This document shows, one piece after another, positions 115 through 17,148 of a DNA stretch of 39,433 nucleotides. Within the stretch, counting starts at the first letter, position 1. Every line of letters starts with the position of its first letter. Source of the stretch: a virus (lineage: Duplodnaviria; Heunggongvirae; Uroviricota; Caudoviricetes); the IMG/VR virus record IMGVR_UViG_3300032030_000013. One strand, 5' to 3'. The notes below the pieces were generated by a model, which did no database searches, was not told the origin of the DNA, and was given only the letters and a program-made list of their open reading frames with translations. The position numbers and the translations under genes were made by a program.

Positions 115-354
115 CTAAGTATGGGTTAAGATTGCTTACTGTTTAATAAATTCTAATTAAAGAAAATATCCCATGCAGACGTACCACCGTCACCTACGGT
201 ATTCCTGTACACGACCTTCGCGTGCTTAAGCCTTGGGCATCTCTGATATCGGAGTTTTATAGCCTGTACCCCAGTTTTCTCTTTCACAGTGTTCTCAAAG
301 TACTAACCGTAAAAGCCAATTTCCAGTACTTAACTTTATAAGTCTCATACTTAG
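115..354 (-). ncRNA. unknown ~240-nt structured RNA
   Basis: Closed by CTAAGTATG/CATACTTAG, GC-richer than coding DNA, no long ORF, internal hairpins (e.g. ACCGT AGGTG ACGGT). Confidence 0.45.
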
Positions 355-368
355 TAGTTTGTTTCGTG

Positions 369-442
369 TGGACCGTAAGGGACTCGAACCCTTCCTAAGA
401 GCTTGCAAAGCTCCCGTGCTAGCCAACTATCACTAACAGCCC
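369..442 (-). tRNA. tRNA-Ala(TGC)
   Basis: Cloverleaf, loop TT-TGC-AA, G3:U70. Confidence 0.95.
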
Positions 443-510
443 AAATAAGGTAGTTTTTATATCCTTAAATTAAATGGTTAGTATCTAGGGAACTACCAAA
501 CCCATTAAAC

Positions 511-647
511 AAGTTTATAAAGAACTTTCAATAAAAGTACATAGAGTAGGATTCGAACCTACGATCTTCGGTTACAACCCGACGTTTTACCACTAAACTA
601 CCCTTTCATGGCGAAAGAAGTAACTCTTATTTACACTATTAAAACTT
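511..647 (-). ncRNA. Y-RNA-like module enclosing a tRNA-like D/anticodon(TGT)/T domain via its acceptor ends
   Basis: GTGTAAATAAGAGTTACTTC pairs with ACTTTTATT; inside are GTTT-AGTGGTA-AAAC, TCGG-GTTGTAA-CCGA and GTAGG-TTCGAAT-CCTAC. Confidence 0.7.
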
Positions 648-650
648 TTG

Positions 651-733
651 AGCCGGAAGTCAGATTCGAACTGACGTGTCCTTACGGATCATGATTACAA
701 GTCAAGCGGAGTCGACCACTGTCCCATTCCGGC
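651..733 (-). tRNA. tRNA-Thr(TGT) with long variable arm
   Basis: GCCGGAA/TTCCGGC, CT-TGT-AA, extra arm TCC-GTAA-GGA. Confidence 0.85.
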
Positions 734-735
734 AA

Positions 736-831
736 ATATTTTATGTAACAGGCGAAGAAAGTTGGTTTTGGTAAAAAATGATCTTATTAAATTATTTCTT
801 GAAGTAACTCTCCTCTACAACAATAAAATAT
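736..831 (-). ncRNA. stand-alone Y-RNA-like module
   Basis: ATATTTTAT/ATAAAATAT terminal stem, GTTGTAG, GAGGAGAGT/ACTTTCTTC stem, TTACTTC. Confidence 0.75.
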
Positions 832-917
832 CAATTTTAAGATTCTATGCATATTTCCGGTTAGCTATTCCGGTCGGGTGGTCTGCCTCCACGTGATCTA
901 TTTAGAATCTTATTTAG

Positions 918-988
918 TTGCGGACGTCAGATTCGAACTGCGTCTTAAGGTTATGAGCCTTATGAGCTACCATTGCTCCACCTCCGCG
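918..988 (-). tRNA. tRNA-Met(CAT), initiator-like
   Basis: C1:A72 mismatch, CT-CAT-AA; compact T arm. Confidence 0.8.
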
Positions 989-1014
989 ATATTTATTTTA
1001 TATATTAATAATAG

Positions 1015-1800
1015 TTATTTAGCCATAATTATTTTATAAGTAGGAATAAAATTTTCTTTATTTTTACCATTACAATGAAATATTTTGATTGATTTAATTT
1101 GTCTTTCAAAAATTTCCGGATAATCTATAAATGAATGGATATTTATATTATTTTCTATTTTAATAGTACATTTATCTTTAAATTTATTAAAAAGATAATT
1201 ATATCCAGATTGATTTACAAATTTAATATCTTTTGAATTTTCTTTATAATATTTCAAAATGACATCAAATAAATTCATATCATTAAATTGTTTGGCATCA
1301 ATAAACAATATTCCAGCATTTAAATCTTTAACATTTAAATATCTTCTTTTTCTAAAATTTTCAGCAGATATAAGTTGAACAATTCTTTTATACCATTTTC
1401 TATTAAAACCGAAAAATAATTTTCCTTCTTGATATTTTAAAAATTCATCTCTAATATTAGCATTAAAAAGAATATCTGTATCTATATACCAAAAATAATC
1501 ATAAGGAATTATTTTTGTAATCCACCATCTAGCTAATGAAGGATATCTTAAATGCCCATTACAAGCATTTTTTAATTGAGGAAAATATTTATCAACTAAT
1601 GATATATCAAAATTAAAATATTCAATATTAACATCTAAATTAGATAATTTTTGTCTAATTTTATTTTCATCAACATAAAAATACATAATGAAAATATTAT
1701 CTACTTTATTAAATTTCAAAAGTGTTTCAATAGACATTCTGAGCATTTCTAATTGCTCATCATTATCATCAATAGTATAGGCAATATTAAATTGTTTCAA
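1015..1800 (-). CDS. glycosyltransferase family 8
   Basis: GT8 motifs: NIAY..DD, YIDTD (DxD), LNAGILFID, NQ..N, IFHCNG. Confidence 0.88.
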   Translation of the reverse strand: MKQFNIAYTIDDNDEQLEMLRMSIETLLKFNKVDNIFIMYFYVDENKIRQKLSNLDVNIEYFNFDISLVDKYFPQLKNACNGHLRYPSLARWWITKIIPYDYFWYIDTDILFNANIRDEFLKYQEGKLFFGFNRKWYKRIVQLISAENFRKRRYLNVKDLNAGILFIDAKQFNDMNLFDVILKYYKENSKDIKFVNQSGYNYLFNKFKDKCTIKIENNINIHSFIDYPEIFERQIKSIKIFHCNGKNKENFIPTYKIIMAK

Positions 1801-1820
1801 TTTGATTGGAAATATTTTTG

Positions 1821-1893
1821 CGGGACGTACGGGAGTTGAACCCGCTCCGTGCTGCGTGACAGGCAGACATCTTAACCGTTTGACCTACATCCC
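1821..1893 (-). tRNA. tRNA-Asp(GTC)
   Basis: Cloverleaf, CT-GTC-AC, G73. Confidence 0.92.
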
Positions 1894-1899
1894 AAATTG

Positions 1900-2040
1900 C
1901 TACCTCTGAGGGACTCGAACCCCCGACCCACGGGTTAACAGCCAAATAATGAAGTAACTCTAACCTACAACATCCAAAGGAGTAACAGCGACTAAAGTAT
2001 AAAAACATTTACGTTGCTCTACCAACTGAGCTAAGAGGTA
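1900..2040 (-). tRNA. tRNA-Asn(GTT) carrying a 68-nt Y-module insertion (1944..2011) in the anticodon stem
   Basis: Removing 1944..2011 gives a perfect ACGGG-CTGTTAA-CCCGT arm; insert contains ACTTTAG...TTAGAGTTACTTC. Confidence 0.8.
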
Positions 2041-2046
2041 GTTTTG

Positions 2047-2293
2047 TAGCGGCCATGGGAGTCGAACCCAATATTTGTGGGGTAATCTTCCCACCGTGGT
2101 TATTTCAAAAACAAGTAACTTAGTTCCTCACTTTATCCCGGGCTTGCTTGACCTTTAACCTTGTTTATTTCATGATGCTGTTAATTACTAATTTTAAGAT
2201 TGCTTACCCGTCGATAAGTAAAGCCTTAATCTAAGTCTTAACATAGCCTGCCGGCACATCAATTTAGAAATTTATCCGTTCCACTCGGACGCT
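2047..2293 (-). ncRNA. ~247-nt RNA closed by tRNA-like acceptor stem and T arm
   Basis: AGCGTCC/GGCCGCT-A (6 of 7 pairs), TGGG-TTCGACT-CCCA, large internal domain. Confidence 0.55.
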
Positions 2294-2305
2294 GAAAAGT
2301 TATTG

Positions 2306-2375
2306 TTGGAGCCAAGGATTCGAACCTTACCACGGACGCGCCATCACGTGTGCTTGCCATTTACACCAAACTCCG
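2306..2375 (-). tRNA. degenerate tRNA-Pro-like RNA
   Basis: D and T arms present; anticodon arm ACGTG-ATGG-CGCGT has a 4-nt loop. Confidence 0.5.
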
Positions 2376-2393
2376 ATTCTTGCAAGAATATTG

Positions 2394-2464
2394 CGCCTCT
2401 GGAGGGAATCGAACCCACACCTACTGATTAACAGTCAGCTGCTCGACCTTCGAGCTACAGAGGC
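2394..2464 (-). tRNA. tRNA-Asn(GTT)
   Basis: Cloverleaf, CT-GTT-AA. Confidence 0.93.
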
Positions 2465-2523
2465 ATTAAAGCAGATTTTATTATAAGCTGGTAACGTCTG
2501 CAAACCTTACTTATAACCTTTCG

Positions 2524-2600
2524 TGGGGACGACGGGGGTTGAACCCGCATGCAACCAATTACCCTTTCGACACTTTATAAGAGTGAGGGGTTACGTCCCT
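2524..2600 (-). tRNA. rewired tRNA-like RNA, anticodon TAT (Ile)
   Basis: Order: acceptor - ACCC - CACT/CTTATAA/AGTG - GGGT - AATTGG - T arm - acceptor. Confidence 0.75.
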
Positions 2601-2759
2601 AAATTATGGAGACAACCTGATAAATTCTCCATAGAATTGGTTAAGAGTCGTTCGGCTTTGGTTGATAGTCTAGTTAATTTACCGGCTTACTAATCCTCCC
2701 AATTCATTTTAACTATCATTCTACTTACGTCAGTTCGTGTCCCTATTACGGGCTCGGAG

Positions 2760-2833
<74 letters not shown>

Positions 2834-2844
2834 ATATTATTTTG

Positions 2845-2919
2845 CAGGTCCTGAAAGATTCGAACTCTCATCGTGCAGGTTTGGAGTCTGCTGTTTTGCT
2901 CTTTTTAAACTAAGGACCC
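2845..2919 (-). tRNA. tRNA-Trp(CCA)
   Basis: CT-CCA-AA, G73; D loop lacks GG. Confidence 0.88.
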
Positions 2920-3069
2920 ATATTATATTGTTATTAACAACTGTGGGTGTCCTAAATACCTGGAACCTTTGGCTACGGCCCGCATGCGGAGTCGAGTTGA
3001 CTTTTAGAACCATTGTTAATATTCAAAGTGATATTCCTACTTTATACCCACTTTCCTTTTACAATATTG

Positions 3070-3142
3070 TACGCCCACTGGGACTCGAACCCAGGACCCA
3101 CGGATTAAAAGCCCGTTGCTCTACCAACTGAGCTATGAGCGC
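3070..3142 (-). tRNA. tRNA-Lys(TTT)
   Basis: Cloverleaf, CT-TTT-AA. Confidence 0.95.
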
Positions 3143-3256
3143 AAATCTCATTTATCTATTGACTCCCATATCGGAATTTTACCGAAATGAAAACGCTGCA
3201 TCGTAAGGAGCGGGATTTTACCCCTAAGATAAACTCGATTAATTATTGTAACCTTG

Positions 3257-3337
3257 TGCCCTCTGTGGGACTCGAACCCACACCTCCGAAGAGCTAGATC
3301 CTTAGTCTAGTGCGTATACCAATTCCGCCAAAAGGGC
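3257..3337 (-). tRNA. tRNA-Leu(AAG)
   Basis: CTAGA-CTAAGGA-TCTAG, class II arm, A73. Confidence 0.92.
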
Positions 3338-3345
3338 ATATTGTG

Positions 3346-3419
3346 TACCTCCGGTGGGATTCGAACCCACGCTCCTATGCTTAAGAGGCATCAGCTTTAA
3401 CCAGCTAAGCTACAGAGGC
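3346..3419 (-). tRNA. tRNA-Lys(CTT)
   Basis: Cloverleaf, CT-CTT-AA. Confidence 0.94.
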
Positions 3420-3634
3420 ATTTAAAAGCTTCGGTTTTAACTTTGTTATCTTTTTGTATAGGATCATCAATCTATCTTTTCACCAGAGTAATTAGCTCAG
3501 GGTCCCGATTACGGACTTCTACCGTTTATCATATTCAATAACTAAGACTTGTAGATAGGCGAAGCATTTCGAACTACTTCATTGCCAACCGTAGCTATAA
3601 ATTTCTCTACAAGTTTTTGCATGGCATGCAATTG

Positions 3635-3707
3635 TGGGGCCACCCAGATTCGAACTGGGGTGACGACCTTGTAAGGGTCGCATACTCAACCACTATATGA
3701 TGTCCCC
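3635..3707 (-). tRNA. tRNA-Val(TAC)
   Basis: CGACC-CTTACAA-GGTCG. Confidence 0.93.
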
Positions 3708-3876
3708 ATTTATAATCTAATCTACACAGCTGACCCATTTCAGTAACGTCTTACATATCAGCTCCTACTGGTCACGACTGAACGTCTTCTTCTGCGAGAA
3801 GGTTTCTCACCTCCATTTTTTTGACCTGCCTCTTCCCCTTCAGAATTTTTAGATTCTGACCTCGATTAGATTATTG

Positions 3877-4064
3877 AACTCACGGGAGGATTCGAACCTC
3901 CATAATATTGTCTATAATATTTAATTTACTAAATAGCAAAAATGTTATTTTCTTAACACGTTAAACAAATTGCTAATAATTATGATTATATTTCTCTATT
4001 ATTTATATAATCATTCGCCTCTATTATAGGTTGTACTGCTGATACCATTCAGCAACCGTGAGTT
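3877..4064 (-). ncRNA. tRNA-like RNA with ~130-nt domain replacing the anticodon arm
   Basis: AACTCACG/CGTGAGTT, D arm GCTG-AATGGTAT-CAGC, T arm GGAGG-TTCGAAT-CCTCC. Confidence 0.7.
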
Positions 4065-4199
4065 AACTAATATATATTTCCTTGTTTTTTGTCCATTACG
4101 TTATACTCGGAGTAAAAAACTAAATATATAAAATTACAAAACCACTTAGAATATAACGGTATATTTGTTGCTAAGGTAATATACAAAACCTCAATTAAG

Positions 4200-4272
4200 T
4201 GCTCCCACCCGGATTCGAACCGAGACCTGACAGATTAAGAGTCTGCTACGCTACCATTAACGCCATGAGAGC
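4200..4272 (-). tRNA. tRNA-Lys(CTT)
   Basis: Cloverleaf, CT-CTT-AA. Confidence 0.94.
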
Positions 4273-4286
4273 AAACTTTCAAATTG

Positions 4287-4359
4287 TGCATCCACTGGGA
4301 TTCGAACCCAGACCTGACAGATTAAAAGTCTGCTACGCTACCATTAACGCCATGAATGC
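4287..4359 (-). tRNA. tRNA-Lys(TTT)
   Basis: Cloverleaf, CT-TTT-AA; D and anticodon arms match 4200..4272. Confidence 0.94.
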
Positions 4360-4365
4360 AATTAG

Positions 4366-4439
4366 TACCTGCACTGGGATTCGAACCCAGGACCCCGAGA
4401 TTAAAAGTCACGTACTCTAACCAACTGAGCTATACAGGC
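4366..4439 (-). tRNA. tRNA-Lys(TTT)
   Basis: Cloverleaf, CT-TTT-AA. Confidence 0.93.
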
Positions 4440-4448
4440 ATATACCTG

Positions 4449-4522
4449 TACTCCCTCTGGGACTCGAACCCAGGCCCCTCTGCTTAAAAGGCAGCAGCTC
4501 TAACCAACTGAGCTAAGAGAGC
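4449..4522 (-). tRNA. tRNA-Lys(TTT)
   Basis: Cloverleaf, CT-TTT-AA. Confidence 0.94.
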
Positions 4523-4678
4523 ATGTTTATAAATTCAAATTTTAACAATTATTTTGATTTTACGTGCATGCTTCTTATTAGTTAATTGTTAGGACTAATT
4601 GCTCTAAGGAAACATACACAACTAACGTTTTCGTTTAAGTTGTTTCATATTTCTTATAATTTATTTAGTTAATGTTTG

Positions 4679-4760
4679 TGGGGCCTGAGAGACTCGAACT
4701 CCCCGTGCGCGATGCAGCTGATTTACAGTCAGCCCCGATGCCATCTCCGGTCACGACCCC
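4679..4760 (-). tRNA. tRNA-Tyr(GTA)
   Basis: GCTGA-CTGTAAA-TCAGC, long variable arm. Confidence 0.9.
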
Positions 4761-4991
4761 AAAATGTGGAATTAAACCGGAATTCCACAACCGGCTAAAC
4801 TTATTTTTGGACCTTTCCATTGGATTAGTTTAGATTCAACCATAGATAAATCAAGAATAGATTTATCTCCCTACTATAATGGGGTAGGTAAATTCCCAAT
4901 GATTAGTTTATTCATCACGAACTAACTAATCCATATCATCTCCATTCTTCCATAAAAAATTATATAACGCTCTTCCATACGTTATACAATG

Positions 4992-5065
4992 TGGGCCAGG
5001 CAGGAATTGAACCCGCGACCTTTTGATTATGAGTCAACTGCTCTAACCATCTGAGCTACAGGCCC
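4992..5065 (-). tRNA. tRNA-Ile2/Met(CAT)
   Basis: CT-CAT-AA; GGGCC start typical of lysidine-type Ile2. Confidence 0.9.
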
Positions 5066-5070
5066 ATTAG

Positions 5071-5156
5071 TACCTGGAGCGGGACTTGAACCCGCACGCC
5101 CATTGCTGGACATCAGATTTTAAGTCTGAGGCGTCTACCAATTCCGCCATCCAGGC
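5071..5156 (-). tRNA. tRNA-Leu(TAA)
   Basis: CT-TAA-AA, class II arm. Confidence 0.95.
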
Positions 5157-5170
5157 ATCATTTATTGTAC

Positions 5171-5186
5171 CAATATGTCAAAGAAC
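5171..5186 (-). promoter_or_regulatory. boxA-like antitermination element
   Basis: GTTCTTTGACATATTG; recurs at 8145, 8898 and 17339 downstream of promoters. Confidence 0.7.
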
Positions 5187-5220
5187 GTATTGTTGTTTTA
5201 TTTATAATAATTACAAATAT

Positions 5221-5248
5221 AAAATAGTAATAAATATTATTATTTCAA
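5221..5248 (-). promoter_or_regulatory. putative promoter
   Basis: TTGAAA-N16-TATTTT. Confidence 0.65.
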
Positions 5249-5278
5249 TTATATTTATGTAAAAATTATTTCATTTTG

Positions 5279-5358
5279 TACCCCGAGTGGGATTCGAACC
5301 CACACCCAATTAAGGACGAATTTTAAGTCCGCTGCGTAGACCATTCCGCCATCGGGGC
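5279..5358 (-). tRNA. tRNA-Leu(TAA)
   Basis: CT-TAA-AA, class II arm. Confidence 0.94.
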
Positions 5359-5521
5359 ATTTAAGTTGAAATCCTCATGAGCAAGATAGTTATTAGGTAC
5401 GCAGTGTGCATCTGCGCATTGGAACATTTTCAAGTTGTTAACTAACCATCATTTTATGTGCTTTAATTAAGTTTACCAACTATCTAATTTCAACTTATAT
5501 TTTATAATTTTTTGATTTAAG

Positions 5522-5628
5522 AAGATATTTTAGTTGGATTCGAACCAACGCGAAAGGCTTGGAAGTTTCCTCATGTCTGACAAATACGTGGCCTTTGTAT
5601 TCGTATCCACTGCATCATAAAATATCTT
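5522..5628 (-). ncRNA. tRNA-like RNA with extended acceptor stem and ~30-nt anticodon loop
   Basis: AAGATATTTTA/TAAAATATCTT, AAAGGC/GCCTTT, GTTGG-TTCGAAT-CCAAC. Confidence 0.6.
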
Positions 5629-5704
5629 TGGCGGTCCCAACGGGATTCGAACCCGTACCTCCGACGTGACAGGCCGGCGATTGTAGCCATTCAACCATGA
5701 GACC
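5629..5704 (-). tRNA. tRNA-Asp(GTC), encoded CCA
   Basis: CT-GTC-AC, ends GCCA. Confidence 0.93.
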
Positions 5705-5824
5705 AGTGTCTGTTTACTTCAAAGTTACCTACCCGATATATACGTATAGTCCTAATATAAATTAGGGTGGCTAAGCCCTTCATCGGTTACCTACCTTCAG
5801 GGGTGAAACAGAAAAGACCCAATG

Positions 5825-5920
5825 TGCCAGTGGTAGGACTCGAACCTACTTACCACGAAGGCCAATACGAACTATTTGTTGACGTGGGACGGTTTTACAG
5901 ACCGCTGCCGTTACACTGGC
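5825..5920 (-). tRNA. rewired tRNA-like RNA, anticodon GTA (Tyr)
   Basis: GCCAGTG/CACTGGC-A; no D arm before GCGGT-CTGTAAA-ACCGT; GCC..TGGTAA follows the anticodon arm. Confidence 0.65.
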
Positions 5921-6122
5921 AAATTAAATGCATTTACCCACCTAGCCATCCACGATACGGTTCGTTGTGCTATCCTACGGCCTCGGTAATATGGCGAATT
6001 TGCAACTTCTCATATAACTGTACCACCATCGCTCTTCTTCACTTCTTTTCACCGTAACCCGTAGATGTAACCCTACTACTCAGAAGTCCATCGATTTGCT
6101 CCGACCTGATAAATACATTTAG

Positions 6123-6199
6123 CGGTCCCTACGGGATTCGAACCCGTCTGGTTGTACTCCGTGACAGGGAGACGTCCACCCCAAGCAGACCCAGAGACC
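6123..6199 (-). tRNA. tRNA-Asp(GTC)
   Basis: CT-GTC-AC, G73. Confidence 0.9.
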
Positions 6200-9037: not shown

Positions 9038-9060
9038 ATATTTTTAAATATTATATAAAT

Positions 9061-10775: not shown

Positions 10776-10780
10776 AAAAT

Positions 10781-10851: not shown

Positions 10852-10897
10852 TATATATTGATACAATTAAGAAATTTTATAAAGTTCATTAATAAAA

Positions 10898-11146
10898 TTA
10901 TGAAATTTTGTATAATTCATTATTGTCAATTGCTCGTCTTATCCATCTCATCAATATTAATGCTTTATCATAATGAGACATAAATGTAGCAGTTTCTCCA
11001 ACATCATGTTTATCTGACAAATCTATATCTAATGAATAGACAGTCCCATCTTCTACAGTTATATGATAAACTGCAATTCCACCAGATTTAACACAATCTA
11101 AAACAGCGGATCCTTTTACGATAGTTTTTAAATCATGAGTAATCAT
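10898..11146 (-). CDS. hypothetical protein (82 aa)
   Basis: Likely start MITHDLK with upstream AGAGG; the longer ORF call overlaps tRNA-Leu. Confidence 0.75.
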   Translation of the reverse strand: MITHDLKTIVKGSAVLDCVKSGGIAVYHITVEDGTVYSLDIDLSDKHDVGETATFMSHYDKALILMRWIRRAIDNNELYKIS

Positions 11147-11185
11147 AATAATACCTCTATATATTTTTCTTAAATTTGTTTGATG

Positions 11186-11265
11186 TGGGGTTAGTGGGAT
11201 TCGAACCCACACCCAATTAAGGACAGTGTCTTAGGCTGCTGCGTCGACCATTGCGCCATAACCCC
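11186..11265 (-). tRNA. tRNA-Leu(AAG)
   Basis: CT-AAG-AC, class II arm, A73. Confidence 0.88.
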
Positions 11266-11515
11266 ATTTTCTCTTTATTCTAACCTTCTGAATAAATGTA
11301 CTCGCGACATACAGATAATTCATACTTCTTGGTCTTACTTGAAATTATAAAGACGTTACCCCCCTCAGGGACATTCTTTACAATTTCTTTCAGCTTGATG
11401 ATTTCCTTTTTTCACAGGTAACGATAAATTCCTGTCATCAAGTCATTGAACAAAGAGTTAATTTGTAGTTTTATTTTAACCGGTTTAACTACATATAAAA
11501 ACGGTATCGTATTCG

Positions 11516-11589
11516 TAGGGCTGGTGAGAGTCGAACTCACGCTCCCTTGCTTGTAAGGCAAGTGCTTTAAACCACTAAGCTACAGCCCT
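11516..11589 (-). tRNA. tRNA-Val(TAC)
   Basis: CTTGC-CTTACAA-GCAAG. Confidence 0.94.
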
Positions 11590-11605
11590 ATATATTTTAA
11601 TTTTG

Positions 11606-11684
11606 TACCCCGCCTGGGACTCGAACCCAGACCCCTAAGGATAGCTTCTAAGGCTACTGACTATACCAATTCGTCTAGCAGGGT
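11606..11684 (-). tRNA. tRNA-Leu(TAG)
   Basis: GTAGC-CTTAGAA-GCTAT. Confidence 0.92.
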
Positions 11685-11708
11685 ATTATTAATATCAACA
11701 TTTATAGA

Positions 11709-11767
11709 TGGTTACGTTGGAATCGAACCAAATAGCTAGCATACATGTACCATTTACTGCGTAACCA
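11709..11767 (-). ncRNA. 59-nt tRNA-like mini RNA lacking a proper anticodon arm
   Basis: GGTTACG/CGTAACC-A, GTA-AATGG-TAC, TTGG-TTCGATT-CCAA. Confidence 0.6.
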
Positions 11768-11777
11768 ATTTAATTTG

Positions 11778-11846
11778 TCAGGGGTGATTGAGTTAAACAA
11801 CCGTCTCATAGTAAAATCCATGGCTCTATCGTTGAGCTAACCCCCG
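11778..11846 (-). tRNA. degenerate tRNA-like RNA
   Basis: TAGCTC..GAGC D arm, 6-nt anticodon loop ATTTTA, atypical T loop. Confidence 0.45.
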
Positions 11847-12082
11847 ATACACGTGGCTCTTTCGAGTTTCGTGAAAGATATGGTATCTTTCTGAGGTTCC
11901 TCGCCCTCTATAGGATGTGGTACATATCTGAAGATACAGGTACAACAACTCTAACTAACGCTTCTATAGATTCCTCAGACCACGCACTTAAGGAACAGAA
12001 CGTACGATTTCTCCTAACACCATAATATTAGGCTACTTCGATTCATAGGCCTGTGCACCAACCTATGACGGCATGCTTTAAT

Positions 12083-12403
12083 TTATAAACCCATTTGTTT
12101 TTGGTATTCTTTATCTCTTCTGTCTATTTCTGACAAAGGTGATACACCAGCATTTAATAATTCTATTTTTTCAAATCCATTTTCTTTAGTAATTAATGAA
12201 TCTTTCTCTGGTACGCATCCTTCATATCGTTCTCCGTATGATCCTGTCATTTTCTTAGTTGCAGGATCCAAATCTCCCCAATCAGCAGAATGAGTATTAC
12301 CTATAGGTTCTATAAAATATTTCTTTCCTGTGATTTTTGATTTAACAATAAAACGACCAGTCTTATCACTATCTTTCAAAAATCTATTATCATCTATTTT
12401 CAT
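12083..12403 (-). CDS. hypothetical protein (106 aa, DWGD motif)
   Basis: ORF with coding-like composition between RNA genes, same strand as the array. Confidence 0.8.
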   Translation of the reverse strand: MKIDDNRFLKDSDKTGRFIVKSKITGKKYFIEPIGNTHSADWGDLDPATKKMTGSYGERYEGCVPEKDSLITKENGFEKIELLNAGVSPLSEIDRRDKEYQKQMGL

Positions 12404-12426
12404 TTTCTCTACATATTATATATCTG

Positions 12427-12517
12427 CGGAGACGGCCGGACTCGAACCGACACACCGTTATTCACGATTACTAGTAGTTTTCAAGACTACTGCCTTACCA
12501 ATTAGGCTTACATCTCC
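12427..12517 (-). tRNA. tRNA-Ser(TGA)
   Basis: GGAG start, CT-TGA-AA, long arm, G73. Confidence 0.95.
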
Positions 12518-12665
12518 AAAATAATACCTTTACATTCCACTATCCCGTACAACTCTAATATTTTGCCTTGATGAATGATACACTAATGTATGTTGCTACA
12601 CATTGGTTGCCTACGGTAACTTCTTCTATTTATTAAGATAGATGTTTCCTTCAAGATATTCACGA

Positions 12666-12749
12666 GGTGGTATGTTGGATTCGAACCAACGTGAGCTCTC
12701 GCTACCAGGACCACAATCTGGCGTCATCGGCCACTAGACGAATACCACC
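12666..12749 (-). tRNA. tRNA-His(GTG) with long variable arm
   Basis: G-1:C73, TT-GTG-GT, extra arm AGC-GAGA-GCT. Confidence 0.88.
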
Positions 12750-12914
12750 ATATATAAAATCATCTTACACAGACTATTTCAAGTCATCCTTAACGCCATG
12801 AAACTAGAAGGTTCTATTTAAATAGAAATGGCATCCAACTGTTCTCCTCTCTGAATATCCATATTCTTTGCCATTAGAATATAGTTCTTTTCAGACCCTC
12901 AGATGATTTTATTG

Positions 12915-12989
12915 GGTATCGTGTCAGATTCGAACCGACATCTCAGTGATTCACAGTCACCGCCTTTTACCAGTTAAGTTAACGACACC
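12915..12989 (-). tRNA. tRNA-His(GTG)
   Basis: G-1:C73, CT-GTG-AA. Confidence 0.9.
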
Positions 12990-13193
12990 ATATTAAATCA
13001 GGTCAACCGCGCTCCCTGATATGTCCCGATACGTTTTTCATCATATTCAAGGCATATGACTGCACAAGCTGCGAGGGCGGGATTTCAACGTAAACCTCGG
13101 TACGGCCCTAAGCGGATTTATAAGAGGCCTCAGGGGTATCCTCTATTGGAGCAGGGCGGACATGCTGCGTACCTCACAGCTCCCTGCATATTG

Positions 13194-13265
13194 AGCAGCG
13201 TACCAGATTCGAACTGGCTCCTTAAGAATGGCGATCTCATATGCAACCATAAACACCTACACTGC
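13194..13265 (-). tRNA. tRNA-Gly(GCC)
   Basis: TC-GCC-AT (C33 instead of U33), U73. Confidence 0.85.
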
Positions 13266-13414
13266 ATTATTCGGTTTTCCTTAGATCCGAAAACTTAGTT
13301 CCGTGTCACGCCATCTGAACCCTCGCCTATGCATACTTCCTATATAATATATATTACGTAATTCAATTATATAGTCATAGGATATTTCTTTAAAGAAATA
13401 ATCAAAGAAGTTTG

Positions 13415-13545
13415 TCGCGGAGGTTGGACTCGAACCAACATAATCTTTTTCCAAATAAAAGCGTGTATACCGAAGTAACTCTAATCTACAGCATTCATAT
13501 TGAAGCAACAGCGAATAAAGTATTAAAAAATTTCACCACTCCGCG
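13415..13545 (-). tRNA. tRNA (Gln TTG or Pro TGG register) with Y-module insertion (~13472..13528) in the D loop
   Basis: CGCGGAG/CTCCGCG-A; GTGAAATT[insert ending AGAGTTACTTC]GGTATACAC. Confidence 0.75.
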
Positions 13546-13635
13546 AAATAAATAGTCTCTCCTATTAGTCACAACATTTTTTCTTAACCTTAAGTAATTA
13601 TAAATTACGCAGGAAACCTTGTTAAACCTGCCGTG

Positions 13636-13709
13636 TAGCCCCCACGGGATTCGAACCCGTTATTCCGGCTTGAGAGACCGACGACTTAAACCAATCTGTC
13701 CCGAGGGCC
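13636..13709 (-). tRNA. tRNA-Glu(CTC)
   Basis: CT-CTC-AA. Confidence 0.9.
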
Positions 13710-13721
13710 ATCAATTAAGAA

Positions 13722-13797
13722 TGGAGCATCTGATGGGAGTCGAACCCACGTCTTAGGCTTGGAAGGCGAACGTACTGAACCGTTATACGACAGATGC
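13722..13797 (-). tRNA. tRNA-Gly(TCC), encoded CCA
   Basis: CT-TCC-AA, ends TCCA. Confidence 0.92.
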
Positions 13798-13972
13798 ATT
13801 ATATAGGCACCGTATTATATCATTAATATAATTTAAATTTTAATATAAAACGGTGCCCACATTAAAGACAGTTTTTAATATTTGATGAAATTAATCATTC
13901 AAACTCCTATGAAGGATTTAACGTGGAGAACCTTGGGAGCACCCTTCGTTACCAAACTCCATTACTAATGCG

Positions 13973-14045
13973 AGCGGCTGATGGGAGTCGAACCCACGTC
14001 ACTGGCTTGGAAGGCGAGTATAATAAACCGTTATACGACAGCCGC
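13973..14045 (-). tRNA. tRNA-Gly(TCC)
   Basis: CT-TCC-AA, U73. Confidence 0.92.
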
Positions 14046-14073
14046 ATATAATATCTTTATATTAATATAAATG

Positions 14074-14149
14074 TACCGAGGGTGAGGGTCGAACTCACGT
14101 GAACCAACTAACCTTTCAACGCCTTATGAGAGCGAGGGTATACCTCGGC
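14074..14149 (-). tRNA. rewired tRNA-like RNA, anticodon CAT (Ile2-like)
   Basis: Same layout as 2524..2600: GCCGAGG-TAT-ACC-CT-CGCT/CTCATAA/GGCG-TTGAAA-GGT-TAGTTGG-T arm. Confidence 0.75.
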
Positions 14150-14150
14150 A

Positions 14151-14380
14151 TGGTCGGGAACCACTGACTTTCACAGGACCTCTACCCACCCACGGGTAGC
14201 GCAGTATGTTCGCATTTTCAAATTCAATTTCGTAAGTTAGCTATTCTTATTACTTTATCTTTCTGTCATTACTTATCATTATTATAAATATTATTGATCT
14301 CGAGAACTTTCAGTCTAATTGCGGCCTTACGCAAATATTTATAAATAATAACTTTCATACGAATCATTTTGCTAATTCCC
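14151..14380 (-). ncRNA. 230-nt tRNA-like RNA with ~165-nt D-loop insertion, ends in CCA
   Basis: GGGAAT/GTTCCC, TAGCA...TGC-G, CTACCC/GGGTAG arm, CTG-TGAAAGT-CAG T-like arm. Confidence 0.55.
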
Positions 14381-14384
14381 AAAG

Positions 14385-14458
14385 TTGGGGCACCGTGACT
14401 CGAACACGGGACTTTCAACGTATCAGATTGACACTCTAACCAACTGAGTTATGCCCCA
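14385..14458 (-). tRNA. tRNA-Ile(GAT)
   Basis: CT-GAT-AC. Confidence 0.93.
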
Positions 14459-14464
14459 ATTAAA

Positions 14465-14562
14465 AAGTAAGTAATTTTATATATTAATGCATTAAATATA
14501 TACGAAGTGTGCTACCGTTACACTAAGGAGTCGAACCTATCCTCTTCAAATATTACTTACTT
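14465..14562 (-). ncRNA. permuted tRNA-elbow mimic (T arm directly followed by D arm, no acceptor)
   Basis: AAGTAAGTAAT/ATTACTTACTT closes GAAG..AGG-TTCGACT-CCT-TA-GTGT-AACGGTA-GCAC-A-CTTC. Confidence 0.65.
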
Positions 14563-14564
14563 AG

Positions 14565-14638
14565 TTGGGCTACCGGGATTCGAACCCAGACCTTCAGCTT
14601 CAAAGGCTGACGTGCTAACCGTTACACAGCATAGCCCA
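14565..14638 (-). tRNA. tRNA-Gln(TTG)
   Basis: TCAGC-CTTTGAA-GCTGA. Confidence 0.92.
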
Positions 14639-14716
14639 ATTATAAATATAAGGCTCTTCCCGTAATGTGGGCTTGTACTTTCGGACTACCTGACACCAAT
14701 TCGTCACCTTATATTG

Positions 14717-14790
14717 TTGGGATATCCGGATTCGAACCGAAACCTGCGGAGTCAGAGTCCGCTGTACTAACCATTATACTGTATATCCCA
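14717..14790 (-). tRNA. tRNA-Gln(CTG)
   Basis: GCGGA-CTCTGAC-TCCGC. Confidence 0.92.
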
Positions 14791-14800
14791 ATTTAATTTG

Positions 14801-14873
14801 TGGGGCCACCCGGGTATGATCCGGGATCTTATCCTTATCAGGGATAAATCCTTACCAGTTAGACGACAGCCCT
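14801..14873 (-). tRNA. tRNA-Ile(GAT), atypical T loop
   Basis: TATCC-CTGATAA-GGATA; T loop ATCATAC. Confidence 0.82.
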
Positions 14874-15100
14874 AAATTTGAGGTTTATGGATAACCTCAA
14901 AAACCCGCAGCGTTTTAGTAAGCGACTTAAATAAAAGTTCTGTTCCATCTCGCCCAATGTATTAAAGCTCAAGCCTTTGGGAGTTCTTTACTTATGTACA
15001 CTCGATTATGACAACTCCGGCAAGTGATATGTGGTAAATTTCCGGATAACCCATATCTCTAATGCCAACTTTACCTATCGTCTAGGATAATGAACTTTTG

Positions 15101-15172
15101 TAGGGCCACGGAGACTCGAACTCCGATGACCAGGTTGAAAACCTGAGATCCTGACCGTTAGATGACAGCCCC
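15101..15172 (-). tRNA. tRNA-Glu(TTC)
   Basis: TT-TTC-AA. Confidence 0.92.
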
Positions 15173-15179
15173 ATATTAA

Positions 15180-15253
15180 AATTCCTGTAATAAGCGAATA
15201 AAGTATTTTTAAAGACCCATTCTTGAAGTAACTCTATTCTTCAACAAGGAATT
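15180..15253 (-). ncRNA. stand-alone Y-RNA-like module
   Basis: AATTCCT/AGGAATT, GTTGAAG, GAATAGAGT/ACTTTATTC, TTACTTC. Confidence 0.75.
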
Positions 15254-15254
15254 G

Positions 15255-15326
15255 TACTCGGTACGAGATTCGAACTCGTATGGCAAGAATGAAAATCTTG
15301 AATCCTAACCCTTAGATGAACCGAGC
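15255..15326 (-). tRNA. tRNA-Glu(TTC)
   Basis: CAAGA-TTTTCAT-TCTTG. Confidence 0.92.
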
Positions 15327-15329
15327 ATA

Positions 15330-15398
15330 AATTGATAGAATAATCGTAGAAAGTATTTAAGCATTCCTAGAAGTAACTCTCTACTACACTAATCAATT
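15330..15398 (-). ncRNA. stand-alone Y-RNA-like module
   Basis: AATTGAT/ATCAATT, GTAGAGAGT/ACTTTCTAC, TTACTTC. Confidence 0.75.
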
Positions 15399-15420
15399 AA
15401 ATTTGCCAAGATTGAGATCG

Positions 15421-15504
15421 TAGGGGCGACGCGACTCGAACGCGCATAGGCCGAAGCTTCCGCATCCCAAATGCGGGCGGGTACCAATTACCGGTTACAC
15501 CCCT
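15421..15504 (-). tRNA. tRNA-Pro(TGG) with extended variable region
   Basis: CCGCA-TTTGGGA-TGCGG, GC-TTCG-GC extra arm. Confidence 0.88.
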
Positions 15505-15570
15505 AAATATTCAAGAAACTTATTAATTTTTTCTATCATTAATAATTACTACATTCCGATTATATAATAA

Positions 15571-15599
15571 TAAATAGATATTATCATTATATTTTTCAA
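15571..15599 (-). promoter_or_regulatory. putative promoter
   Basis: TTGAAA-N17-TATTTA. Confidence 0.5.
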
Positions 15600-15964
15600 A
15601 AATAAATGTTAACTATTTCTCTTCAAGTTATTGATATTTTACGGCCGATATTCAATATCATAACATAGCTTGCATGTTTCCCATTCAGCTGTTTAAGGAG
15701 CTACCTTAAATCTCGGTGGGCAATTTCCTAACATTTATTTGTTATACGGTATTCTATCTTAAACTATCAAACCTTGCGGGCCATACTAGGTGTCTCACCA
15801 CGTATCTCCGTATATAAGATAATTGTAATCTTCTCACTTTCCTCGTCTCACTATGGGGTTCGTAGCTATCGACCACATAGGTCTTACCGAGTCCTATACC
15901 ATATTGGAGCTGGACTTGCAGCTGCTTTAACGTTTGTCCGCAGGTCTTGAAAATTACAATTAGG

Positions 15965-16044
15965 TCAGGGAGACAGGACTCGAACCTGCATAACTTAATC
16001 TCGCTTCCAAAGCGAGTCGGTCACCTATTACCGGCTACACCCTG
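15965..16044 (-). tRNA. tRNA-Pro(TGG)
   Basis: C1:G72, A73, CTCGC-TTTGGAA-GCGAG. Confidence 0.9.
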
Positions 16045-16332
16045 ATTAATATAAATCTTTCCAAATCCTCATACTTAATATTTCCTCTACATTCCGCGTA
16101 GGCGAGGTACTTCTTGGCGCCTTAAGTACAAGATAGCTCTAAGATAATGAAAACAACTATAGGACACGTGTTAAATTAAAATAATTGTTTTCAGAGCTTA
16201 CTCAACCAATGTTGAGCTTAAATAGTTTTAGACTTAGATACACGTCTGGGACTTTTACTAAATTTACTCTAAGTCTTTATAATATAAATTACAACATATT
16301 TTCCATAGCATTTTTGGCTGTAATCTATATTG

Positions 16333-16407
16333 TGGGTCCGACTTGAGTTGAACAAGTGCCTTCGGATTTTCAGTCCGACGAGCGACAACCACCTACACCA
16401 CAGACCC
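16333..16407 (-). tRNA. tRNA-Phe(GAA)
   Basis: TCGGA-CTGAAAA-TCCGA. Confidence 0.9.
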
Positions 16408-16412
16408 AAAAT

Positions 16413-16553
16413 AAAATTATCGGAACAGCTATAAAAGTATAAATAAATATCGATTCTCTTGGATTCGAACCAAGGATTCAATTCTGGAAAAATTGCATTA
16501 AAACCACTTAATTAAAAATCGTGAAGTAACTCTTATATACACCAGATAATTTT
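16413..16553 (-). ncRNA. Y-RNA-like module enclosing a complete tRNA-Gly(TCC)-like cloverleaf
   Basis: TATAAGAGT/ACTTTTATA stem; inside CGATTTT/AGAATCG, ATTA-AGTGGTTT-TAAT, CAATT-TTTCCAG-AATTG, CTTGG-TTCGAAT-CCAAG. Confidence 0.75.
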
Positions 16554-16554
16554 G

Positions 16555-16641
16555 AGGCCAGGGTGGGATTTGAACCCACGCGGGAATTTCTTCCAATAGT
16601 TTTGCAGACTACTCTCATCAACCAGACTCGGGCACCTGACC
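16555..16641 (-). tRNA. tRNA-Cys(GCA) with long variable arm
   Basis: CT-GCA-AA, U73, extra arm GGAA-GAAA-TTCC. Confidence 0.88.
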
Positions 16642-16648
16642 AAATATA

Positions 16649-16824
16649 AAATCTACAGAATTAATGAATAAAGTAATTATTAGATAAAAATTTCGTGTAT
16701 ACCAATTTCACCACCGCGGCACGATGCCATGGACGGGACTCGAACCCGTATTCCATTTACTGGAAAAATTTTGAGAAGTTATCAGCTTTCTTATGAAGTA
16801 ACTCTATCCTACACTAGTAGATTT
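16649..16824 (-). ncRNA. YrlA-like Y RNA (circularly permuted tRNA-Leu-like domain)
   Basis: Order: module 5' strand - variable arm - T arm - acceptor closed by a loop (CCATGGCA-TCG-TGCCGCGG) - D arm - module 3' strand. Confidence 0.8.
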
Positions 16825-16829
16825 GTTTG

Positions 16830-16915
16830 CGGAGAAAGTAGGTGTCGATCCCAATCCGTTTCACCGAACGAGCTGTTTTCAAGACAGTCCTGCGGGCCGC
16901 CGCAGTTCATTCTCC
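16830..16915 (-). tRNA. tRNA-Ser(TGA), 8/4 (allo/Sec-like) fold
   Basis: 8-bp acceptor, 6-bp D stem with 4-nt loop (CTGCGG-CGGC-CCGCAG), 4-bp T stem, long arm, G73. Confidence 0.8.
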
Positions 16916-17148
16916 AATTTAAATAGATATAAGAATAATTATATTGCACCCATGCCCAGTCAAGAATTGAACTATCCTAGTTGCGGTTTCGAACCACGCT
17001 TCAAATTATTAATCACACCAGTGATACAGACATATATCTATTTTAATATTCAAATATTGCAATCATTCAACATTCTGCCACCCAGGCAGTTCAAACCCAG
17101 GGAAAGATTTAAACTTCTGACTCCTTACGGATATATTTGAATATTTAG

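Follow-up and report, generated by a model that had tools for sequence, protein, structure and literature searches.

Spacers of a giant-phage tRNA array probably encode some two dozen additional small RNAs

What occupies the DNA between the tRNA genes of a giant phage? The window analyzed here, a stretch of 39,433 nucleotides from a caudoviricete virus (IMG/VR record IMGVR_UViG_3300032030_000013), carries a tRNA array at 368..17463. The array comprises 55 called genes, every one on the minus strand, and additional odd tRNAs (ARAGORN, Rfam tRNA, and relaxed ARAGORN), and thus at least 55 in total. An earlier note on this DNA had described nearly every inter-tRNA spacer as a discrete RNA closed by its own terminal stem, and the array as a source of 20 or more such RNAs. 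We could confirm this observation in part, as it is real but overstated, and the interpretation as a whole is partly supported. The array probably yields some two dozen extra small RNAs, for which the earlier note suggested hypothetical roles as decoys, aptamers, or antitoxin or crRNA mimics. The spacers are indeed richer in GC (33.1%) than the four ORFs inside the array (27.0%) and the rest of the window (24.5%). Because those ORFs (104 to 390 amino acids) lie within the array, the accompanying claim that spacers lack ORFs does not fully hold.

All 13 terminal inverted repeats cited in the earlier note are in place. In minimum-energy folds of the tRNA (minus) strand, which is the strand of all units described below, each of them closes a multibranched structure. 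Stems were counted in the 42 inter-tRNA gaps of at least 60 nt, as perfect Watson-Crick helices of at least 9 bp. Such stems lay within 10 nt of both gap ends in 5 of the 42 gaps (0.04 expected), and were anchored at the 5′ end in 10 (0.62 expected) and at the 3′ end likewise in 10 (0.76 expected). The expectation was unchanged when AT-rich ends were kept and partners exchanged between gaps, and end-anchored perfect stems of this length exceeded dinucleotide shuffles or the end-swap control by about 15 to 100 times. Head-to-tail tiling by closing stems of at least 8 bp gave 28 units (3.6 ± 2.0 in shuffled sequence). Only a few local hairpins of 15 to 21 pairs occur in the array. Short inverted repeats made of AT-rich sequence are common, and both the linkers and the closing stems are rich in AT; even so, there is next to no probability that the stems are chance matches, because counts run roughly 6- to 100-fold above dinucleotide shuffles and the swapped-end control, and a similar excess of end-anchored stems recurs in six related arrays (weakest in L005). 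We regard the chance reading as already refuted.

When G-U pairs and one mismatch are permitted, 21 of the 41 ORF-free gaps contain a strongly closed unit (6.5 by chance). Thus, stem-closed units are real, although "nearly every" spacer goes too far. In other gaps we find tRNAs that were missed or are odd (Tyr, Arg, Ser, Ile-TAT, and two with inserts), protein genes, or sequence left unassigned. We counted about 25 to 30 distinct units, in agreement with the proposed library of 20 or more.

Units start 0 to 4 nt past a tRNA 3′ end and stop 2 to 8 nt short of the next tRNA, and linkers overall (unit-tRNA and unit-unit) measure 0 to 8 nt. The short linkers are 91% A/U (n = 50). Of the 55 tRNAs, 50 carry U at N(-1) and just 2 encode CCA. 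All of this is consistent with "tRNA punctuation," in which RNase Z and RNase P would excise the units. Units tile long gaps exactly, as where 17145-17045, 17043-16921, 16916-16830, and 16824-16649 follow one another with linkers of 1, 4, and 5 nt. As far as sequence can indicate, this geometry fits release by processing of flanking tRNAs. Units that adjoin directly, with no intervening tRNA, would have to be separated by some nuclease other than RNase P or RNase Z, except where the unit carries a T arm. Such abutting units occur at 3712..4130 (4130-4071, 4064-3877 with a T arm, and the cited 3874-3712; linkers of 6 and 2 nt) and at 736..912 (the cited 912-838, closed by 10 bp, and 831-736, closed by 9 bp and bearing a Y-like handle).

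The best explanation, and one that we consider rather likely, is that long transcripts carry tRNAs together with self-closed accessory RNA genes that are excised by tRNA processing. The array would form a few long minus-strand transcription units in which tRNAs and non-tRNA RNA genes stand head to tail, each a self-contained folding unit, and an extra unit of about 50 to 230 nt would join its own two ends in a closing helix of 7 to 14 bp. RNase Z, cutting right after the discriminator of a CCA-less tRNA, would generate the unit 5′ end, and RNase P, cutting at the 5′ end of the next tRNA, would leave an A/U tail of 2 to 8 nt. Exonucleases may trim this tail to the closing helix, which would then shield both ends, and the stabilized RNAs may act in trans. 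The units would be mixed accessory RNA genes and not a single family: (a) derivatives of tRNAs that retain a T arm and a stem resembling the acceptor, in some cases with inserts; (b) Y-RNA-like RNAs united by one handle helix; and (c) structured RNAs, about a dozen, that are unrelated and have no assigned role.

Punctuation by tRNAs operates in animal mitochondria, at MALAT1-mascRNA, and in engineered tRNA–guide RNA arrays. RNase P and RNase Z cuts at the flanking tRNAs reportedly set the RNA ends (Ojala et al. 1981, Wilusz et al. 2008, Xie et al. 2015). The linker geometry, U at -1, and scarce encoded CCA of the array fit this model; however, the known systems free mRNAs, rRNAs, a long non-coding RNA, or guide RNAs, whereas the array is predicted to free many small stem-closed RNAs.

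Conservation and covariation support the view that the spacers hold discrete RNA units and not filler, and several units with compensatory changes far exceed the neighboring protein in conservation. The best-supported structured RNA of the array is the cited 167-nt unit at 14933..15099, with five helices and 22 distinct homologs. Compensatory changes affect 8 of its 37 pairs, and 98.5% of cells are paired; its covariation score was reached in 0 of 500 shuffles, and its count of double-change pairs in 1 of 500. The 187-nt unit at 11271..11457 has a covarying closing helix, with compensatory changes in 3 of 9 closing pairs and in 13 of 58 pairs overall. Closing stems are further compensated in 17045-17145, 16649-16824, 7218-7270 (53 nt, 8 bp, covarying in one lineage), and 15180-15253. 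The first of these, 101 nt long with a 13-bp closing stem beginning 2 nt past tRNA-Ser(gct) (folding z -2.85), is 89 to 98% identical in 10 lineages, and its outer closing pair alternates among GC, AU, and GU. Compensatory pairs were also found in the 58-nt unit at 7882..7939 (8-bp stem, 2 nt past tRNA-Thr; three pairs in seven sequences) and in the cited 199-nt unit at 6602..6800, which is flanked by two tRNA-Asn genes (82 to 83% identity in two lineages; five pairs). The cited 143-nt unit at 15820..15962, with a 10- to 14-bp stem starting 0 nt past tRNA-Pro, is 95% identical in two lineages. It is followed by a 72-nt unit at 15743..15814 (7-bp stem; 94 to 96% in three lineages) and a 141-nt unit at 15600..15740 (12-bp stem; 89 to 96% in four). 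Between tRNA-Ile and an odd CAT-anticodon tRNA lies an element of about 232 nt (14150..14383) that is 92 to 96% identical across lineages; its 32-codon ORF is disrupted by 1-nt indels in relatives, and one hairpin covaries.

Other units stand by themselves. Among about 15 related arrays, no homolog was found for 7 of the 13 cited units, so conservation gives their function no backing. These orphans include 7465..7644 (180 nt, 10-bp stem), 7360..7460 (101 nt, 9 bp), 6882..6996 (115 nt, 11 bp, between two tRNA-Asn genes), and 5359..5500 (about 140 nt, 11 to 14 bp). The cited 197-nt unit at 5925..6121, closed by 14 pairs of which one is G-U, has partial homologs. No Rfam family matches the units, and in a phage collection that included T4, nothing matched beyond tRNAs.

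Could the closing helices work only in cis, insulating each spacer from its tRNAs or presenting the tRNA ends to processing enzymes, with the spacers degraded afterward? The terminal boundary helix is the most widely common trait of otherwise unrelated units, seven cited units are orphans, and module interiors are not unusually stable (mean folding z -0.19 versus shuffles, n = 25; array tRNAs without acceptor stems are alike, -0.24, n = 55, so that folding z does not discriminate). Yet many tRNA pairs in these arrays are only 4 to 29 nt apart and need no insulator, and a given slot is empty in some lineages. Furthermore, several interiors are 83 to 98% identical, with covarying internal helices, where the phages' 390–amino acid marker protein is only 43 to 66% identical, and insulation alone requires neither. 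We therefore think this possibility unlikely, if worth keeping in mind.

Part of the spacer space consists of unrecognized tRNAs, tRNA-derived RNAs, or Y-RNA-like RNAs and is not wholly novel. Outside the called tRNAs, we found 18 T-arm-like hairpins, so that many "spacers" evidently contain RNAs that were missed or that derive from tRNAs. One is internal to the cited 123-nt unit at 16921..17043 (11-bp closing stem), which is tRNA-derived; another lies in the 98-nt unit at 14465..14562 (11- to 13-bp stem), and a 71-nt minihelix-like unit at 10781..10851 combines a 12-bp stem with a T arm. An odd tRNA-Ser(tga)-like gene at 16829..16916, missed by default ARAGORN and recovered in relaxed mode, scores 43.8 bits as Rfam tRNA-Sec, under the gathering score of 47, and is 93 to 100% conserved. 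Two tRNAs contain inserts: a tRNA-Gly(tcc)-like gene at 5522..5628, with 25 nt in the anticodon loop and an 11-bp closing stem, and tRNA-Asn(gtt) at 1900..2041, with 68 nt bearing a Y-like handle.

These tRNA-like features raise the idea that the units are decaying tRNA duplicates, with closing stems left over or extended from acceptor stems and interiors adrift. Relaxed ARAGORN finds tRNA-like folds in several units, two units are tRNAs with inserts, and 7-bp stems anchored just upstream of tRNAs are the commonest class (29 of 42 gaps). We nonetheless judge such decay improbable. Of the 13 cited units, 12 lack a T-arm motif and return no tRNA score even with E allowed up to 10, and closing stems often span 9 to 14 bp rather than 7. 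In addition, conserved units such as 14933-15099 covary in helices unlike a cloverleaf, and pseudogenes would not keep at least 90% identity over such divergence.

Positions between given tRNAs turn over. Depending on lineage, a slot is empty (4 to 29 nt), filled by unrelated cassettes, or occupied by endonuclease ORFs. The Gln-Gln slot here holds an orphan cited unit of 71 nt (14645..14715; 9- to 10-bp stem); when lineages are compared, the contents of this slot fall into six unrelated sequence clusters, or it is empty. In the His-His slot, the cited 159-nt orphan at 12754..12912 (12-bp stem) is unrelated to a unit of about 166 nt in other lineages and has no match in IMG/VR or JGI metagenomes. 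BLAST found unit 16921-17043 in L001, L004, L005, L014, and L017 and did not find it in L007, L009, or L010, where the flanking units are 3 nt apart. Empty slots mean that the phages can do without the units, some of which might be near-neutral passengers. Related megaphages gain, lose, and exchange units as cassettes, probably aided by homing endonuclease genes located in the arrays.

Presence or absence at what appear to be the units' own boundaries, the swapping of slots, and the endonuclease genes in related arrays might also suggest inverted repeats that act on DNA, as ends of miniature transposable elements or as cassette-moving recombination sites. This is very improbable. The terminal repeats differ from unit to unit, and only the Y-like handle is repeated in the window. 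At a score of at least 22, closing-stem G-U pairs number 16 on the tRNA strand versus 5 on the opposite strand, on which the stems score worse; together with invariant G-U pairs and compensatory changes, this points to selection on RNA of the tRNA strand.

The description of the interiors as all different was mostly accurate, with one exception: an 11-nt handle, AGAGTTACTTC, occurs eight times in the array. Module-versus-module BLAST found only this Y-like handle, and no CRISPR-repeat-like repeats were detected. The handle is confined to arrays and to the tRNA strand. In the free-standing 74-nt unit at 15180..15253, a closing helix is joined to the conserved handle helix GAAUAGAGU/ACUUUAUUC, and five pairs show double changes among 13 sequences. 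The 176-nt unit at 16649..16824 (8-bp closing stem) carries the handle with a perfect T arm, a YrlA-like layout, and has six compensatory pairs in three sequences, including C-G to U-A in the closing stem. In bacterial and phage Y RNAs, the stem formed by the RNA ends bears a conserved protein-binding helix, and some are joined to a tRNA-like domain; such RNAs have been reported from over 250 species of bacteria and phages, and RNase P cuts Mycobacterium smegmatis YrlA (PMC4201824). As in Y RNAs (YrlA, RF02553; Ro60/Rsr), the handle helix recurs, eight times in the array and once with a perfect T arm. However, array units score 20 to 24 bits in Rfam against a gathering score of 69 for YrlA, the handle sequence departs from the published motif, and the likeness is limited to 8 units, with a dozen unrelated units outside it. 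No Ro60 gene lies in the 39,433-nt window; a related 376-kb megaphage genome encodes a TROVE plus vWA protein. The handle-bearing units are probably a Y-RNA-like family that partners such a phage Ro60 protein.

Theta (HDV-like) ribozymes, structured RNAs of Bacteroidota gut phages, begin no more than 1 nt away from the 3′ terminus of tRNAs that lack CCA and take part in tRNA 3′-end formation (PMC10879173). A generic nested double-pseudoknot descriptor gave no hit within 5 nt of any array tRNA 3′ end and five hits in total, near shuffle level (1 to 4), and Rfam ribozyme families had zero matches in the array. Array units pair their first with their last nucleotides, unlike the HDV topology. A helix of flanking sequence likewise joins both RNA ends in the RNase III stalks of bacterial rRNA operons. 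Typical RNase III substrates are about 20 bp, and the array closing stems, mostly 7 to 14 bp, are shorter. The closest known counterparts, besides Y RNAs, are the T4 species 1 and 2 RNAs (rnaC and rnaD), which are small, stable, encoded on the tRNA strand, and of unknown function, in a tRNA cluster that also contains the homing endonuclease gene segB (PMC2330249). We find that, downstream of tRNA-Arg in T4, rnaD begins 1 nt and rnaC 6 nt past the tRNA or RNA before it. The T4 RNAs show no similarity in sequence to array units, most of which have no T arm, and rnaD is not obviously closed end to end. The predicted rnaC fold, however, places a T arm beside a closing stem and resembles units 16921-17043, 16649-16824, and 10781-10851; T4 has two such RNAs, and the array about 25 to 30.

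We find that the ends of the spacers between tRNA genes in this array pair with each other far more often than expected by chance. The first 17.5 kb holds 53 tRNA genes by ARAGORN, or 55 with Rfam-only additions, all on the minus strand. The earlier note had named 13 spacers as stem-closed RNAs; terminal inverted repeats were present in all 13, and each is predicted to close a multibranched minimum-energy fold on the tRNA strand. Inter-tRNA gaps of at least 60 nt (n = 42) were searched for perfect Watson-Crick stems within 10 nt of the gap ends, with dinucleotide shuffles as the control. Stems of at least 9 bp anchored at both ends occurred in 5 of the 42 gaps (0.04 expected), and those anchored at the 5′ or the 3′ end in 10 gaps each (0.62 and 0.76 expected, respectively); for 3′-anchored stems of at least 7 bp the count was 29 (6.1 expected). 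Because AT-rich spacer ends could pair through composition alone, we also matched every gap's 5′ end against the 3′ end or the body of some other gap. This swapped-end control left the expectation for both-anchored stems of at least 9 bp at 0.04, ruling out such an artefact. Tiling the array with units whose closing stem has at least 8 bp and begins no more than 8 nt from a tRNA or an already accepted unit gave 28 units over 3.4 kb, compared with 3.6 ± 2.0 units in shuffles. When the search tolerated G-U pairs and a single mismatch, 27 units were found in 21 of 41 ORF-free gaps, compared with 7.2 ± 2.9 units in 6.5 gaps. Six related arrays have a similar excess of end-anchored stems, smallest in the related locus L005. 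From the gap, swapped-end and tiling tests and these six arrays, we therefore conclude that stem-closed units are real and common to the clade. The original observation is confirmed in part: it is real and significant but was overstated, as stem closure applies to roughly half of the long gaps (two-thirds when stems of 7 bp are included) rather than to nearly every spacer. The array very probably encodes some 25 to 30 discrete structured RNAs besides its tRNAs, a number that agrees with the predicted library of at least 20 distinct RNAs. The spacers are also GC-richer than the remainder, as had been noted (33.1% in non-ORF spacers versus 24.5% in the rest of the window; DNA around the array is ~24% GC).

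Long gaps divide exactly into units that lie end to end. The gap at 16642–17147, for example, consists of units 17145–17045, 17043–16921, 16916–16830 and 16824–16649, separated by linkers of 1, 4 and 5 nt, and the gaps at 15505–15962, 3708–4198 and 734–916 are built in the same way. Units start 0 to 4 nt past a tRNA 3′ end, mostly 0 to 2 nt, and end 2 to 8 nt ahead of the next tRNA. Linkers of up to 15 nt (n = 50) are composed of 45% A, 46% U, 5% C and 4% G. The base at −1 is U in 50 of the 55 tRNAs, positions −2 to −6 are ~85 to 93% A/U, and CCA is encoded in only two of the 55. In bacterial tRNA maturation, RNase Z cleaves CCA-less precursors directly after the discriminator, and RNase P prefers a short single-stranded leader with U at −1. 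The linker geometry, U(−1) and lack of encoded CCA thus fit the release of each unit by processing of its flanking tRNAs, an excision that we infer from this layout. An RNase Z cut after the preceding CCA-less tRNA would give the unit a near-flush 5′ end, and an RNase P cut at the following tRNA would leave it a short A/U 3′ tail. RNase III stalks were considered and rejected: the flanking duplex of about two turns is missing, and closing stems are mostly 7 to 14 bp.

Pfam and PHROGs searches of the ORFs within and next to the array yielded no useful anchor proteins. In the flanking DNA, matches were almost limited to a 5′-3′ exonuclease, a phosphoesterase and a holin-like protein, and those of the exonuclease were confined to huge phages, all distant. 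Two very large plus-strand ORFs that adjoin the array (1643 and 1263 aa; 17950–26674) have no Pfam or PHROG match; the 1643-aa protein returned no match as a query for related loci, and tblastn of the 1263-aa protein against a phage collection of 50,697 records returned nothing. As a marker we used a 390-aa ORF inside the array (9423–10595, minus strand), which likewise lacks a Pfam or PHROG match. Its product has 98 metagenomic homologs (93 to 34% identity), whose contigs reach 405 kb, and its relatives in IMG/VR sit on contigs of 376 and 435 kb. Judged by these contigs, the window belongs to a gut or rumen-type megaphage clade. The marker protein lies within arrays in closer relatives and among ordinary genes in distant ones (L012, L015 and L020), and homologs of the 1643-aa protein flank the array in related contigs.

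Several units are conserved among the ~15 related arrays retrieved with the marker protein, which include phages whose marker is merely 43 to 46% identical to that of the window. Identity is 89 to 98% for unit 17045–17145 (10 lineages), 92 to 96% for 14150–14383 (10 lineages; 80% in L013), 74 to 95% for 14933–15099 (11 lineages) and 77 to 96% for 15180–15253 (12 lineages). For the 167-nt unit 14933–15099, a pattern scan of JGI metagenomes enlarged the family to 22 distinct sequences. The consensus fold of this unit comprises five helices with 37 pairs in total. Compensatory double changes occur in 8 of the 37 pairs, and 98.5% of cells are paired, falling to 34 to 48% in slid-register controls. 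Among 500 column shuffles, none reached the covariation score and one reached the count of double-change pairs. Unit 11271–11457 has compensatory changes in three of its nine closing pairs and 13 of 58 pairs overall. Closing stems are also compensated in 17045–17145 (GC/AU/GU), 16649–16824 (C-G to U-A), 7218–7270 and 15180–15253. Several G-U pairs within units are invariant, and closing-stem G-U pairs number 16 on the tRNA strand versus 5 on its complement (score at least 22). This excess and the invariant pairs indicate that selection acts on RNA of the tRNA strand. The ~232-nt element at 14150–14383 (minus strand) keeps its 92 to 96% identity where the marker protein is 43 to 66% identical, and matched no Rfam family. 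We rejected a small-peptide reading of this element: in L001, L005 and L024, 1-nt indels disrupt its 32-codon ORF (14269–14367), within which a hairpin covaries. Seven of the 13 cited units had no homolog in the related arrays fetched. For one orphan, 12754–12912, a scan of IMG/VR with 16-mers gave chance matches only and a scan of JGI metagenomes with 24-mers gave nothing, an absence at the level of exact words.

Folding energies are not diagnostic here. Whole gaps have a mean folding z of −0.94 on both strands. Whole units average −1.78, because they were selected for closing stems, and their interiors −0.19 (n = 25), no more stable than the shuffled controls against which the earlier note had proposed to judge them. 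However, the 55 true tRNAs of the array behave identically, with a mean of −1.36, and −0.24 without their acceptor stems. Since tRNAs score like units, the shuffle test is uninformative about structure, and folding z-scores were dropped as a criterion.

The units do not form a single family. Their interiors had been described as all different, and an all-against-all BLAST of 32 units found nothing in common except an 11-nt handle, AGAGTTACTTC, in eight copies (16805, 16533, 15380, 15235, 13482, 1961, 811 and 627; minus strand). MITEs were rejected, as no other ends or bodies are shared among the 32 units. The handle helix, GAAUAGAGU with ACUUUAUUC, is conserved and covarying, and lies inside the stem formed by the two ends of the unit. 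Related genomes of 376 and 236 kb have four and six copies, at 327–348 kb and 64–80 kb, respectively, on the tRNA strand only; all copies of the 376-kb genome and nearly all others fall in tRNA arrays, and a reversed control pattern occurs zero and one times. The 376-kb genome also encodes a 482-aa Ro60-like protein with TROVE and vWA domains (L027:907–2355; 52.4 bits against a cut-off of 23). No TROVE protein was found in the 236-kb genome, which is 83% complete, nor was there a TROVE match among four scanned ORFs in the remainder of the window. The covarying helix in the terminal stem, the array-bound copies and the Ro60-like gene therefore suggest a subclass that resembles Y RNAs (PMC4201824), notwithstanding best scores for Rfam YrlA (RF02553) of 24.5 and 20.3 bits, far below the gathering threshold of 69.

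Other units are tRNA-like. Eighteen T-arm-like hairpins lie outside called tRNAs; one T arm is in the handle unit 16649–16824, and 10781–10851 consists of a 12-bp stem and a T arm. Relaxed ARAGORN found, all on the minus strand, the array's only candidates for tRNA-Tyr(gta) (4676–4763) and tRNA-Arg(acg) (3161–3232), a tRNA-Ser(tga)/Sec-like gene (16829–16916; tRNA-Sec, 43.8 bits), tRNA-Ile(tat) (2525–2617), tRNA-Gly(tcc) with a 25-nt insert (5524–5624) and tRNA-Asn(gtt) with a 68-nt insert that includes the Y-like handle (1899–2040). All six score at or close to tRNA level (RF00005 at 29 bits or more, or an ARAGORN cloverleaf). Two weak CAT-type matches lie at 14074–14149 and 8272–8335 (minus strand). 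Neither insert is long enough to be a group I or II intron. Because several such odd or insert-bearing tRNAs escape default settings, tRNA numbers in these phages are underestimated. By contrast with these, 12 of the 13 cited units lack any tRNA match, T-arm motif or handle, and belong to a third, unclassified group. An Rfam search, run both with gathering cut-offs and at a relaxed E of up to 10, returned only tRNAs and sub-threshold noise.

Units occupy slots whose content changes between lineages. A syntenic slot may hold a bare linker of 4 to 29 nt, one of several unrelated units, or an insert of ~1 kb that carries a homing-endonuclease-like ORF (DUF559 or GIY-YIG). The Gln(ctg)-Gln(ttg) slot holds any of six sequence clusters or is empty, the His-His slot any of four or is empty, and the Gln(ttg)-Ile slot any of four, an ORF insert or nothing. 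Endonuclease-like ORFs were found in L001 (3735–4784), L004 (2527–3213), L005 (3748–4476), L007 (5016–5726), L013 (5160–6269) and L014 (4239–5219), and none in the corresponding slots of the window. Unit 16921–17043 is absent by BLAST from L007, L009 and L010. In L007, 3 nt separate the homologs of the units on either side of it, so the gap coincides with the boundaries of the unit. Because slots can be empty, the units are dispensable for tRNA processing, and empty slots weigh against a purely insulating role.

The tRNA cluster of phage T4 is the closest precedent. There, tRNA-Arg is followed by rnaD and rnaC ("small, stable RNA; species 2/1"), the linkers being 1 and 6 nt long, and the GIY-YIG homing endonuclease gene segB lies within the cluster (PMC2330249). 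Like rnaC and rnaD, the units sit within a cluster of phage tRNA genes and on the same strand as these, with linkers of 0 to 8 nt, and endonuclease-like ORFs of related arrays fill inter-tRNA slots as segB does; however, the array here is more than 10 times larger in scale. The predicted fold of rnaC has a T arm beside the closing stem. Searches of the array by megablast and blastn against the 50,697 phage records, T4 included, matched tRNAs only, and thus showed no homology to rnaC or rnaD. Theta ribozymes occupy the same position as the units, after CCA-less phage tRNAs (PMC10879173). No nested double pseudoknot of the theta/HDV type with a catalytic C was found within 5 nt of a tRNA 3′ end, no HDV or theta family in Rfam matched at E up to 10, and an HDV-fold descriptor, generic and home-made rather than the published one, gave five matches against one to four in shuffles, which is background.

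The earlier interpretation, a library of structured RNAs freed by tRNA processing, is partly supported; the roles that it proposed for them, as decoys, aptamers or crRNA mimics, are putative. We raise as a tentative and rather doubtful possibility that such arrays are platforms of exchangeable RNA cassettes: dozens of unrelated small structured RNAs, each packaged by a closing helix, released by tRNA punctuation and traded between phages like "morons". In this reading they would act in trans, with host or phage proteins as their targets; they might, for instance, partner Ro60, or serve as decoys or aptamers that counter tRNA-targeting defences. If this were true, cassette RNAs would make up a class of accessory genes in phages that has gone largely unrecognised. 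Giant phages are noted for their many tRNAs, and the DNA between these is usually ignored. If the spacers are two dozen or more processed RNA genes, giant phages would have a large hidden noncoding repertoire; no description of structured RNAs in megaphage tRNA arrays was found in the literature searched. The T4 species 1 and 2 RNAs, a puzzle half a century old, would in that case be a small-scale example of something widespread. The units also provide candidates for new RNA families, for example the strongly covarying 14933–15099, and candidate RNA partners for phage Ro60-like proteins. The arrays may be naturally occurring equivalents of RNA arrays engineered with tRNA punctuation.

Two short minus-strand ORFs of 34 and 37 aa (17663–17767 and 9203–9316) both have EI as their last residues before the stop, and after each comes a strong hairpin that resembles a terminator (17628–17601 and 9171–9140, tRNA strand). 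One such pair precedes the array and the other lies midway through it, an arrangement that suggests two transcription units equipped with leader elements. Isoacceptor redundancy is heavy, with seven genes for Lys, five for Asn and four for Asp (3069–4522, 6346–7070 and 5629–6199). These tRNAs are targets of known anticodon nucleases, and the redundancy may be relevant to counter-defence. Three local hairpins of 15 to 21 pairs (13801–13862, 16281–16331 and 8227–8271; minus strand) are, unlike the closing stems, long enough for RNase III sites or terminators.
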